Of a DNA stretch of 64,000 bases, positions 18,371-21,975 are shown in pieces. Position 1 is the stretch's first letter; every line of letters begins with the position of its first letter. A program made the translations under genes and the position numbers. Source of the stretch: Acidobacteriota bacterium (GTDB taxonomy: Bacteria; Acidobacteriota; UBA6911; RPQK01; JAJDTT01); assembly GCA_965209055.1 (NCBI GenBank), contig OZ242374.1:5664001-5728000 (forward strand), read 5' to 3'. Under the pieces are notes generated by a model. It was given only the letters and a program-made list of their open reading frames with translations, made no database searches and was not told where the DNA came from.

Positions 18371-20422
18371 GTGAGATACATTTCGCGTCGCGCCTTGTCG
18401 CTCCTTCGGGCAGGCGTTGGTGATTCCGGCGTCCGTTTCCGGACCGGTCAGGAAGAGGCTGTTCGCCATGTCGTAGAGGGAAAAGGCCGGCTGTTGGTGG
18501 TCCAGAAAACAGGCTGGGGCAAGAGCTTCGTCTACTTCATTGCGACAAAGCTCTTACGTGAGGCGGGTTTGGGTCCGACACTACTCGTCAGTCCCCTGCT
18601 GGCGTTGATGCGAAACCAGATTTTGGCAGCGGAAAGGATGGGAATCAAGGCCGAGACGATCAACTCCAACAATCGGGAACATTGGAGCGAAGTAGAGGAA
18701 GCGGTCCGTCGCGATGAGACGGACATCCTTATCATTTCTCCGGAACGATTGGCCAACGAGAGGTTCTTGCGGGAAGTGCTGGCGACGGTGGCGAACCGGG
18801 TCTCATTGCTCGTTATCGACGAAGCGCACTGCATATCGGACTGGGGTCATGATTTCCGTCCCCATTATCGTCTGATTGAAGGCATAGTCCGTACGCTACC
18901 GCCAAATCTCCGCCTATTGGCAACCACCGCGACGGCAAACGACCGTGTGATGGCCGACTTGGAAGACATTCTCGGACCGAATCTTGAGGTTTCACGGGGT
19001 GACCTTTCCCGCCCGTCACTCAGCCTTCAGACCATCCGCCTGCCGAGCCAATCCGAACGTCTCGCTTGGCTGGCCGATCAGTTGCGGTCGCTCTCCGGCA
19101 GCGGAATTGTCTATACGCTGACGGTTCGCGACGCCGAACTCGTGGCCTCCTGGCTCCGGTCAGGCGGTCTCAACGTGGCCGCATACACGAGCAGATCCGG
19201 TGCGGGCCGACCGGAACTGGAGCAAGCCTTGCTCGACAACGAACTCAAGGTGCTGGTTGCAACAACGGCTCTAGGGATGGGATTCGACAAACCGGATCTG
19301 GCATTTGTAATTCACTACCAAGCCCCTGGCTCGGTCGTGGCCTACTACCAGCAGGTCGGACGGGCGGGGCGGGCACTCAGAGCGGCATACGGGGTGCTCC
19401 TGAGCGGTCACGAGGATACGGAGATTGCAGATTATTTCATCAGAAGTGCTTTCCCGACCGAAAATGAGGTCGACGCGGTGGTCTCGGCACTGGAAGATGC
19501 TCCCGATGGGCTTTCGTTCCGCGAGATTCAGATGGCGGTTAACGTAAGTTACCGTCGAATAGAAAAAACCATTCAACTACTTTCCCTGGAGTCGCCGGCG
19601 CCGATCGCCAAGCTGGGAGCGAAGTGGCAGCTCACGGCTGCAACCTTGAGACAAGCATTCTGGGAGCGAGCGCGACGGCTCACTGACCTGCGGCATACTG
19701 AGCTAGCACAGATGCAAGAGTACATCCGACTGCCCTCCGGCCATATGGAGTTCCTGATCCGGGCCCTGGACGGCGAGCCCAAGAGTGTTTCTTCGCCAAA
19801 CCTCCCGCATCTATCCACGACTGTAGCACCGCAACGAGTTCGTGAGGCCGTTGCATTTTTGCGCCGCAATAGCCTGATCATTAGACCACGGCGGACTTGG
19901 CCACCGGGAAAGCGTATCGATGGCGATCATCAGGCAGAACCCGGCAGAGCGCTCAGTACCTGGGCAGATGACGGCTGGGGGGATCTCGTACGGCAAGGAA
20001 AATACGTAGACAACAGATTCTCCGACTCTCTCGTAGACGCTTGTGTTTCTCTGGTGCGACAGTGGTGGCCCGATCCGTTCCCGGAGTGGGTCACCGCCGT
20101 TCCGTCCCACCGCCATCCTGATCTTGTTCCTGACTTCGCCCGGCGTCTCGCAATAGCGCTCGGACTTCCATTCCGCGTAACGATGGTAAGAAAAGAGGGC
20201 CGTCCGGAACAGAAAACGATGGAAAACAGCGACAAGCAAGCGCGAAACATCCTTGGATCGGTGACAGTCGAGGAAACCGCCATTCTCAAGAGCCCCGTGC
20301 TGTTGGTGGACGATATCGTGGACTCCCGATGGACCTTCACAGTTCTCACCTGGGAACTTCGCCGCCGCGGATGTGACGCCGTGTGGCCGCTCGCGCTCGC
20401 CGATGCCGGAGGTACGCGATGA
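18371..20422 (+). CDS. RecQ-family DEAH helicase with C-terminal ComF-like phosphoribosyltransferase domain
   Basis: QKTGWGKS (Walker A), [40 protein letters not shown]-terminal [26 protein letters not shown] (PRPP-binding loop). Confidence 0.92.
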
Positions 20423-21975
20423 ACGGGGATATGGATCTTTCCTTGAACACCAAGGCGATCCTGCTATTGACTGCACCCCTCATCGCAGGTGGGGTCAGGG
20501 GTGGAGTGAAACCCCTTACAGCGGGTGAGTACAACAAGCTCGCTGGTCGCCTCCATGCACTTGGAGTCCAACCGGCGGACCTGTTGAAGAGCCACTCGGA
20601 CTCTCTCTTGGACAACTGTAGCTCCGTGGCGGACACGTCTCGCCTCACGGCGCTAATAGGCCGGGGATTCGCGCTGGCCCAAGCCGTCCGACGATGGCAG
20701 GCAAGAGCGATCTGGGTGGTTAGCCGTGCCGACGGCGAATACCCGCGGATGCTCAAAGAGCGATTGCGTAAAGACGCGCCGGCTGTGCTTTACGGATGTG
20801 GAAACAGAGAGATCATCGGAACCCGCAGTGCCTTGGCCATCGTTGGATCGCGCAATGTCGACGAGCCGACTCTTCACTACGTCGAAGGCGTCTCCGCCCT
20901 TGCGGCCAGAGCAGGCTGCACCATCGTGTCGGGAGCGGCGCGAGGTGTGGATCAGGCCGCAATGAATGGCGTCTTGAAGGCTGGCGGATCAGCCGTGGGG
21001 GTGTTGGCGGGGAATCTTGAGAGAACGTCCATGAACCGAATGCATCGAAATCTGGTCTTGGAGGAACGGCTGGTGCTGGTCTCTCCGTACGATCCGGGAG
21101 CAAGGTTCAATGTGGGCCACGCGATGCAGAGAAACAAGGTGATCTACGCCTTGGCCAATGCCGCCTTGGTGGCCCATGCAGTCGTCAACAAGGGAGGAAC
21201 CTGGGCGGGGGCCGTAGAGCAGCTGAGGAAATACTCCACGCCAGTTCACGTGCTCTCACGTGGGGATGCACATGACGCGCTGAAAGAGTTGCAGCGCCGA
21301 GGGGCGAAATCTTGGCCGAATCCGACGGATCCGGACGGATTCAAAAAGGTTCTCGCCAGTACGGATACGATGGTCCGCCCTTACCAACTCAAGCTTTCTT
21401 CTACCCGGCTGGCGACAGATCCTCACTTGGTTTCCGAACCGGCACCGTCAACCAGCGACGAACCCCGCCAATCCGGAAGCGCTTCCAAGGAACTCCTTCA
21501 GTCCATACGTTCTCTGATGCGACGTTTCCTTGCACATCCCAAGACGCCCGAGGAGGTTTCCAACGTCTTGAACGTCACCAAACCTCAAGCCGAGAATTGG
21601 CTGCAAAATCTGGTTGCAGATGGTGAATTGGAGAAAAGCACCCGACCCGTGAAGTACGTTCATTCGACACACGGCCTAGTTCAGGAAGGACGATCCGGGG
21701 AGAGCATGGAACACATACAAAACAGCGGGACCGAATCCTATCGACCATCCGATGTGATTGAAGACTACGCGCAAGAATTGCACGATGTCGTGCGGCGTCT
21801 GATTCCTCGTGTCGTAGTCACACCCAAGACAGCACGCCAGGTATCTGTGGAACTCGGTGTCAGGGAATATCAGGCCCGGCAATGGCTGAATCGATTGGCT
21901 GGGGAGGAGGTCCTGGATAAACACACGAATCCCGTGACGTATATTCGTTCGACGGAACGCCTGTTTGAGGAGTGA
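20419..21975 (+). CDS. DprA/Smf-family protein with two C-terminal winged-HTH-like repeats
   Basis: [54 protein letters not shown] overlap with the helicase stop. Confidence 0.9.

Follow-up and report, generated by a model that had tools for sequence, protein, structure and literature searches.

The window analysed here is a stretch of 64,000 nucleotides (nt) from an Acidobacteriota bacterium (GenBank assembly GCA_965209055.1, contig OZ242374.1, positions 5,664,001 to 5,728,000 of the forward strand). Its subject is a two-gene operon encoding a RecQ-like helicase fused to a phosphoribosyltransferase (PRTase) and a DprA-like protein, here named psyrT and psyrA. According to the open reading frame (ORF) listing, gene 1 (psyrT) occupies 18371..20422 on the plus strand and encodes 683 amino acids (aa) from a GTG start; gene 2 (psyrA) occupies 20419..21975 on the plus strand and encodes 518 aa. 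The TGA of gene 1 (20420–20422) overlaps the ATG of gene 2 (20419–20421) as ATGA, the sequence near 20419 being GCGATGAAC; the coupling of the two genes by such an overlap, reported in an earlier note made from the sequence, is seen at 20419–20422. The start of gene 2 was placed at the ATG at 20419 because the protein read from there aligns with the N-termini of its homologues. The N-terminus of PsyrT agrees with the family consensus in a 31-sequence alignment. The features of the operon, including two winged helix–turn–helix (wHTH) units, are as follows.

18371..20422, plus strand: psyrT, rqlH-type toxin gene, with a RecQ-like core, a winged-helix/helical linker and a C-terminal PRTase domain
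18434..19468, plus strand: RecQ-type helicase core, residues ~22–366 (Pfam, TIGR00614, Foldseek, VIA)
20048..20419, plus strand: PRTase domain, residues ~560–683 (PF00156 in the family, hhalign, invariant residues)
20419..21975, plus strand: psyrA, rqlI-type antitoxin gene (PADLOC PsyrA; ATGA overlap)
20704..21318, plus strand: DprA-type Rossmann domain, residues ~96–300, after a helical N-domain (1–95) (Pfam, AlphaFold2, Foldseek)
21475..21669, plus strand: wHTH unit 1, residues 353–417 (helices 355–370, 377–384 and 388–400; hairpin 404–415; weak TrmB match)
21760..21954, plus strand: wHTH unit 2, residues 448–512 (helices 450–465, 472–479 and 483–495; hairpin 499–510; weak FaeA/DUF7342 match)

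Assignment of the pair to PsyrTA

The PADLOC model PsyrT (PDLC03928) matched gene 1 with an expectation value (E) of 4.9e-266 and 882 bits, over residues 5–679 and profile positions 5–684 of 689. Gene 2 was matched by the PADLOC model PsyrA (PDLC03927; E 1.8e-127) over residues 5–414 and profile positions 1–395 of 398. The runner-up models were DpdF for gene 1 (E 1.6e-87, residues 22–406, the helicase part only) and ShosA for gene 2 (E 1.3e-27, residues 81–309). The pair is a member of PsyrTA: both proteins are full-length family matches, the genes stand in the canonical order and overlap, and the catalytic motifs are intact. PsyrTA is described in the preprint of Millman (10.1101/2022.05.11.491447) as a phage-protective two-gene system, 'also called RqlHI' and known earlier as a toxin–antitoxin pair, in which the antitoxin is DprA-like and the toxin contains a PRTase; the psyrA deletion is reported there as not transformable, and Sberro 2013 is cited for psyrTA as a toxin–antitoxin, together with Russell and Mulvey 2015. 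The latter authors state that rqlH is always found upstream of rqlI, frequently with overlap (PMC4670107). The locus is an additional copy of a kind of system that has already been named and published. The earlier note had proposed a candidate undescribed system and had accepted that a hit to a named one would remove the novelty; because both proteins match named PsyrTA models end to end, the system is not an undescribed one. What had been a well-reasoned novelty is PsyrTA/RqlHI, a system already recognized by standard defence finders.

PsyrT was examined by sequence and by fold. Pfam detected DEAD, Helicase_C and ResIII, and the NCBIfam subfamily model recQ_fam (TIGR00614) was passed (229.4 bits, cut-off 219.8). 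No Pfam match to RecQ_Zn_bind, RQC or HRDC was obtained on the whole protein at E ≤ 0.01, residues 480–683 searched at E ≤ 10 yielded a weak Pribosyltran match and nothing else, and the recQ equivalog TIGR01389 was failed (255.9 bits against a cut-off of 640.2). PsyrT therefore shares with canonical RecQ the sequence and fold of the helicase core, but differs from it in having no zinc-binding, RQC or HRDC module; a housekeeping RecQ was rejected as its identity on the score far under the TIGR01389 cut-off and the three undetected domains. The helicase motifs are GWGKS at 48–52 (Walker A lysine K51, K49 in RqlH), DEAH at 150–153 (its aspartate is D148 in RqlH) and QQVGRAGR at 327–334. All three are invariant in the 31 aligned PsyrT sequences, as are D647, D648, D651, W654 and T655, in an alignment with a mean column identity of 78%. 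The AlphaFold2 model of PsyrT has a mean predicted local distance difference test score (pLDDT) of 73.6. Foldseek matched it to the cores of RECQL5 and of D. radiodurans and E. coli RecQ (E ~1e-19), and VIA aligned it with 5lb3_B (Z 23.9, r.m.s.d. 5.3, 358 aligned).

Fold searches with the whole of PsyrT were filled by helicase matches, and the assignment of the PRTase is therefore sequence-based. PF00156 (Pribosyltran) was detected at E ≤ 0.1 in 18 of the 31 family members (best 5.4e-7). The PRPP-loop motif (PRPP, phosphoribosyl pyrophosphate) lies at residues 643–655, with DDIVD at 647–651, and corresponds to DIVD663 of RqlH, whose mutation is reported to abolish RqlH toxicity (PMC4670107). 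A phmmer search of residues 480–683 against PDB sequences gave no match at E ≤ 1. When the profile of the same residues was compared by hhalign with the nine PRTase-like ORFs of the genome, the best score was 86% probability (E 4.9e-6, 103 columns), followed by PRPP synthetase (48%) and hypoxanthine-guanine phosphoribosyltransferase (30%). The best-scoring ORF is of the ComF/GntX family by NCBIfam, though under the curated cut-offs. The label 'ComF-like PRTase' is a fair description of the PsyrT C-terminus because hhalign ranks this ORF of the same genome best. Pfam, the invariant motifs and hhalign bear out the earlier description of gene 1 as a protein with intact RecQ motifs and a ComF-like PRTase end in place of HRDC. 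A complex prediction for PsyrT 480–683 with PsyrA 1–320 scored 0.00 (mark 0.32), which is 'no answer' and counts for neither side.

PsyrA carries the Pfam domain DNA_processg_A at residues 93–264 (E 4.5e-36). It fell under the cut-off of the dprA equivalog TIGR00732 (88.2 against 191.15 bits) and gave no Pfam match to DprA_WH, and on these grounds a housekeeping DprA was rejected. Its AlphaFold2 model (mean pLDDT 81.0) consists of a helical N-domain, a Rossmann domain and two wHTH units at 355–415 and 450–510, each made of three helices and a hairpin (pLDDT ~88–92) and each following a disordered linker. Unit 1 and unit 2 share 40% identity over 62 aa (E 2.6e-14), in agreement with the two C-terminal wHTH-like repeats noticed earlier. 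The second is formed by the ~100 C-terminal residues that extend past the PADLOC PsyrA model. Foldseek matched the model to S. pneumoniae DprA 3uqz (E 5.1e-14, TMt 0.75, 283 columns), and also to R. palustris DprA 3maj and to ShosA 8zva (E 3.5e-13). The helical N-domain and the Rossmann fold are shared with canonical DprA, from which PsyrA differs in lacking DprA_WH and in having, after disordered linkers, two wHTH units of TrmB/FaeA-like type. The N-terminal extension that had been attributed to gene 2 is present, but most of it is the canonical DprA helical N-domain, as the 3uqz match shows.

The pair shares with described PsyrTA/RqlHI the overlapping toxin-then-antitoxin order, a RecQ-like core with a C-terminal PRTase that bears a DIVD-type motif, and a DprA-like antitoxin with a C-terminal HTH. 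It differs in the length of PsyrA (518 aa, against a model of 398 positions and an RqlI of 400 aa), in the second tandem wHTH, in its environmental host lineage and in being a lone 4-kb insertion. Copies of the wHTH were counted with a hidden Markov model built from the unit. Among the 120 best PsyrA homologues, five have no copy, 70 have one, 39 have two (a figure that takes in the window's own 99% cluster, P0001) and six have three; for 80 loci of species-representative genomes the corresponding counts are 11, 62 and 7 for none, one and two copies. The two-wHTH PsyrA is thus a form that recurs in a minority of the family and not an oddity of this locus, because 39 of the 120 homologues and 7 of the 80 loci share it. 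In the homologue alignment (P0007, P0011 and P0013), three-wHTH homologues are ~580 aa long and others, with none, ~340 aa. No discussion of this variation from zero to three copies, which is documented here, was found in the PsyrTA literature as far as it was accessible.

Two other systems were considered. ShosTA, to which the pair had been likened, also couples a DprA-like antitoxin to a PRPP-binding PRTase toxin, with DNA-damage-type phenotypes. ShosT is reported to bind PRPP and to disturb purine metabolism and DNA replication (PMC11961720), and ShosA to be a dimeric DprA-like protein that binds single-stranded DNA (ssDNA) and RecA (PMC12961424). ShosT has no helicase, whereas gene 1 is a helicase fusion, and gene 2 is fitted far better by the PsyrA profile than by ShosA; the pair was accordingly not assigned to ShosTA. 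ShosT was absent among the best 25 of 42 PADLOC families listed for the pair. The antitoxins differ as well: ShosA neutralizes ShosT without direct binding, as a section heading in PMC12961424 puts it, and acts via RecA and ssDNA, whereas RqlI co-immunoprecipitates with RqlH, and does so only when the PRTase domain is present (PMC4670107). DpdF shares its helicase core with PsyrT, as the PADLOC match indicates; it was rejected on an NCBIfam score of 172.9 against a cut-off of 550 bits, a match confined to the helicase part, unrelated neighbours and the lack of adjacent dpd genes.

Insertion site and foreign origin of the operon

The operon lies within a segment that is flanked by two copies of a direct repeat.

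18248..22260, plus strand: lineage-specific insertion with the operon, the unique DNA between the repeat copies (4.0 kb; empty-site synteny; GC 0.578)
17649..18247, minus strand: left repeat copy, a truncated second copy of gene X limited to its 3' end (last 199 codons; matches X residues 333–531, 96%)
22261..22859, minus strand: right repeat copy, the 3' end of intact gene X (repeat comparison)
22263–23858, minus strand: gene X, 531 aa (orthologues of 91–98% in 8/8 other same-genus genomes)
22091..22261, no strand assigned: hairpin-rich multi-copy repeat element of 171 nt (two tandem sub-repeats of 27–28 nt, each with an 8-bp stem)
18248..18370, plus strand: psyrT upstream region (AT-rich; AGGGAG ~9 nt ahead of the GTG)
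18289–18312: palindrome with 9-nt arms, candidate operator (inverted-repeat search)

Window positions 8001–32000 were compared by blastn with the syntenic regions of five same-genus genomes and found to be colinear on both sides of the operon. In all five genomes the next gene after a uracil-DNA glycosylase (UDG)-like gene and an antitoxin-like gene (~16566–17589 in the window) is the orthologue of gene X. Base composition sets the segment apart. GC content is 0.54–0.62 in 500-nt intervals starting at 18500–22000 and 0.61–0.68 in those of the flanks (starts 10000–15500 and 22500–27500); for the segment 18248–22261 it is 0.578 and for the whole window 0.623, and the lowest two of all 4-kb GC values fall on it. 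GC at third codon positions (GC3) is 0.63 in psyrT and in psyrA, against 0.75–0.86 in six neighbouring genes, which substantiates the observation that the pair is more AT-rich than its surroundings.

The distribution of PsyrT is patchy. A match to the whole protein was found in two of 41 genomes of the order (a count that includes the unpublished genome G016 as a negative): that of the window and G004, which belongs to the same genus and carries a 69% identical homologue at an unrelated position. The other matches in the order end at about residue 400 and represent the RecQ core. Full-length homologues are present in two of the nine genomes of the genus, and five of 137 genomes of the class matched at E ≤ 1e-150 (49–69% identity). 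Homologues in metagenome-assembled genomes of Gammaproteobacteria, Limisphaerales and Spirochaetia are 72–74% identical, closer than the same-genus (69%) or order-level (49–53%) ones. Low GC3, empty syntenic sites, patchy distribution and closer homologues in other phyla together show that psyrTA is foreign DNA between conserved genes, and the earlier suggestion of a mobile module is upheld by the empty sites (5/5), the GC3 values and the distribution. The host lineage is environmental, its closest DNA being found in sponge and marine metagenome runs, and the PsyrTA family is extended to such a lineage.

The G004 homologue (locus L013, G004:C1:55000-73000, 6989-13875) is flanked on one side by an XRE-like ORF and an RmrA/CapP-like zinc peptidase and on the other by an NsnB-like ATPase (AAA, E 1.5e-44); a PIN-like ORF is also present, the PIN-like and XRE-like calls being readings of translations. 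This locus is likely to be a defence island.

Between the left and right copies of the 0.6-kb direct repeat, 569 of 594 compared positions agree (95.8% identity). Eight of the 25 differences are private to the right copy and three to the left, too few, on sequence comparison, to choose between a donor-derived copy and one duplicated in situ. There is no integrase or tRNA at the site. The layout suggests either a one-sided homologous crossover in gene X combined with an illegitimate join or, equally, Campbell-type integration of a circle that carried a piece of gene X. The insertion is not an assembly artefact, because contigs from independent sequencing runs show its structure: a 4003-letter contig of run X5, from a different study, spans 18155–22166 across the left junction with 107 differing letters, and in run X7 one contig links psyrA to gene X, connecting 22090 with 22262 through seven other letters. 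An excised or empty-site form was sought in the sequencing runs, and no contig joins the repeat copies in register; the joints 17881>22759 and 17881>23523 were disregarded, having sides of 25–30 letters and lying off the 4612-nt register. The locus is a clean natural example of a single defence or toxin–antitoxin operon entering a conserved chromosomal site, with 0.6 kb of the flank duplicated and without an integrase. Run X1, the best match to the window, also contains a minor variant of the psyrT contig (19552–20230; 26/362 and 13/216 letters differ) at a depth of ~4–5 against 15–18, so that the sample contains another, related strain that carries a psyrT copy of its own. No RNA run was among the matches listed for the window.

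The 171-nt element at 22091–22261 is a secondary insertion because it is absent from the X7 contig and multi-copy in the genome. It has at least 55 matches at E ≤ 1e-5 (with 40 of 247 first-look candidates scored), its relatives include an array with an 80-nt period (G000:C1:3248844-3249391), and contig depth rises sharply over it in each of the four runs compared. It looks like a member of a repeat family resembling repetitive extragenic palindromic (REP) sequences or miniature inverted-repeat transposable elements (MITEs), and is a possible terminator. At the other end of the operon, the region 18248..18370 may serve as promoter or operator. A promoter scan found no consensus sigma-70 site in this region, and the numbers of promoters (1) and terminators (5) predicted by the scans did not exceed those in shuffled sequence (means of 1.3 and 4.3).

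Function and competing explanations

We consider it very probable that the pair is a horizontally acquired PsyrTA (RqlHI) toxin–antitoxin and anti-phage module. Toxicity of PsyrT alone and its neutralization by PsyrA would be expected by analogy with the E. coli and P. syringae homologues, binding of PsyrA to the PsyrT PRTase domain by analogy with RqlH and RqlI, and phage protection by analogy with a cloned homologue in E. coli. The earlier preference for an anti-phage or toxin–antitoxin role related to ShosTA over a housekeeping one essentially agrees with what the cited literature says of the PsyrTA family. RqlH alone is reported to cause an SOS response, filamentation and mutagenesis (PMC4670107). 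According to the same paper, its toxicity depends on the C-terminal PRTase domain (509–690) and on the putative PRPP-binding residues DIVD663; the PRTase domain by itself is insufficient, and the helicase-dead variants K49A and D148A are still harmful. Neutralization requires the N-terminal and DprA-like parts of RqlI, its C-terminal HTH being dispensable. The paper cites work on an M. smegmatis homologue for 3'–5' helicase activity. The literature search turned up no post-2015 paper devoted to the mechanism of PsyrTA.

Several points weigh against this assignment of function. In the survey of PMC4670107, 55.3% of strains have RqlH but lack RqlI, and the authors of that paper, Russell and Mulvey, proposed a cooperative role in DNA maintenance, not defence. 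A native E. coli PsyrTA, studied by deletion and by expression in K-12, is reported to have given no protection against the phages tested (10.1101/2024.12.20.629700). The PRTase domain of the window's own protein stays under the Pfam cut-off, with E from 0.013 (residues 480–683) to 0.093. Lastly, none of eight neighbouring ORFs matched PADLOC at E ≤ 1e-4.

In the mechanism that we propose, PsyrA would hold PsyrT inactive in the uninfected cell. Phage DNA intermediates (ssDNA or recombination structures) would be sensed by the DprA-like antitoxin, the helicase or both, so that the PRTase would be released or activated; it might then block DNA replication, with growth arrest or abortive infection as the outcome. 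The two wHTH units may keep PsyrA on DNA or serve in autoregulation of the operon, for example at the 18289–18312 palindrome, and are probably not needed for neutralization. A more speculative extension, partly raised by Russell and Mulvey and applying to the whole family and not to this copy in particular, strikes us as rather improbable: the RecQ-like motor may bring the PRTase onto ssDNA or phage DNA for PRPP-dependent phosphoribosylation of bases, making PsyrT a helicase-guided DNA-modifying toxin, while the zero to three wHTH units would set the DNA site or operator of the complex and the two-wHTH form would be a functionally distinct subtype.

The most serious rival is a selfish addiction module with no defence role in its host, in which loss of the antitoxin would free a genotoxic PRTase–helicase. 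The pair was first validated as a toxin–antitoxin (Sberro 2013, via citing papers), the psyrA deletion that could not be transformed fits such a module, the operon stands without defence neighbours (0/8), and the native E. coli study detected no protection. Set against this, heterologous PsyrTA protected against phages (10.1101/2022.05.11.491447), the G004 homologue has a defence-island context with its NsnB-like ATPase and RmrA/CapP-like peptidase, and toxin–antitoxin and defence roles are compatible; we regard pure addiction as unlikely.

The reading of a PsyrTA defence module is also favoured by the genomic complement. Besides psyrTA, the 6.08-Mb genome has two RecQ-like genes (716 and 802 aa), both with RecQ_Zn_bind, RQC and HRDC, and a 367-aa DprA with DNA_processg_A and DprA_WH, encoded just upstream of a topoisomerase I-like (topA) ORF, a call made by reading the ORF translation. 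Separate housekeeping recQ and dprA genes, for which the earlier note had advised a check, are thus present. Both RecQ types occur in all eight other same-genus genomes, and a ComF-like gene is found elsewhere in the window's genome. The idea that RqlH is an accessory helicase for DNA repair or recombination and RqlI its regulatory partner, the two acting jointly on damaged or incoming DNA, draws on the intact helicase motifs of PsyrT, on the cooperative action on DNA proposed by Russell and Mulvey and on the frequency of RqlH without RqlI. It is made very unlikely by the two canonical RecQ proteins and the canonical DprA that the genome already has, by the patchy distribution and foreign composition, and by the toxicity of the PRTase domain when unopposed (PMC4670107).

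Homologues of both proteins are abundant. Of 8000 candidates scored in the PsyrA search, 5250 proteins had E ≤ 1e-10, and of 8000 scored with the C-terminal half of PsyrT alone, 5560 had E ≤ 1e-30; many of these more than 5000 homologues of each protein are labelled RecQ-family helicase or DprA. A contig scan found at least 541 relatives among 599 pattern matches, of which 80 loci were kept, spanning Acidobacteriota orders, Gammaproteobacteria, Spirochaetia, Nitrospirota, Planctomycetota, Verrucomicrobiota, Chloroflexota and others. By tblastn, at 70 of the 80 loci a PsyrT-like gene on the same strand precedes the PsyrA match and ends 0–86 nt before it; three have less than 400 nt of upstream DNA (L033, L052, L090), two have a PsyrT match without the C-terminal part (L058, L071), and at five there is no PsyrT match within 7 kb (L038, L053, L075, L092, L105).

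That the pair is an undescribed system for defence or ssDNA processing, or else a competence module that mirrors ComFA/ComFC/DprA, has a negligible probability: the combination of helicase, ComF-like PRTase and DprA-like protein does follow the logic of the competence proteins, as is also remarked in PMC4670107, but both proteins match named PsyrTA models over their full length, each has more than 5000 homologues, and the genome keeps its own dprA and comF-like genes elsewhere, with no competence genes adjacent to psyrTA. With the competence set the pair shares an analogous set of activities, and the PsyrT PRTase is nearest, of the nine PRTase-like genes of the genome, to the ComF/GntX-family protein; it differs in that PsyrT fuses helicase and PRTase, in that the helicase is of RecQ and not ComFA type, in the lack of a competence gene context and in its patchy, mobile distribution.

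Neighbouring genes

At this locus psyrTA is a solitary insertion and not part of a defence island. The defence-island flavour that had been given to the surroundings was not borne out by PADLOC, and the UDG-like and antitoxin-like genes proved to be conserved syntenic genes of the genus and not cargo. Of the neighbours named earlier, the UDG-like gene and an insertion sequence with an IS5-type transposase are present, but a Fic domain (PF02661) has no match inside the window at E ≤ 0.01. Two small ORFs, 15177–15374 (65 aa) and 17337–17606 (89 aa), matched no Pfam family at E ≤ 10. The IS5-type element (~15225–16613; transposase at 15538–16506 on the minus strand, 322 aa, DDE_Tnp_1 and DUF772) is a second insertion of the window's genome, missing at the syntenic site of the five same-genus genomes.

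Gene X has no Pfam family except for a weak GH130 hint (E 0.14). It belongs to a paralogue family with 203 matches in its own genome and 166–225 in each of the eight other genomes of the genus. The LTXXQ/CpxP-like gene at 14272–15180 contains an internal tandem duplication of ~327 nt (14470–15096, 82%) and two LTXXQ modules.

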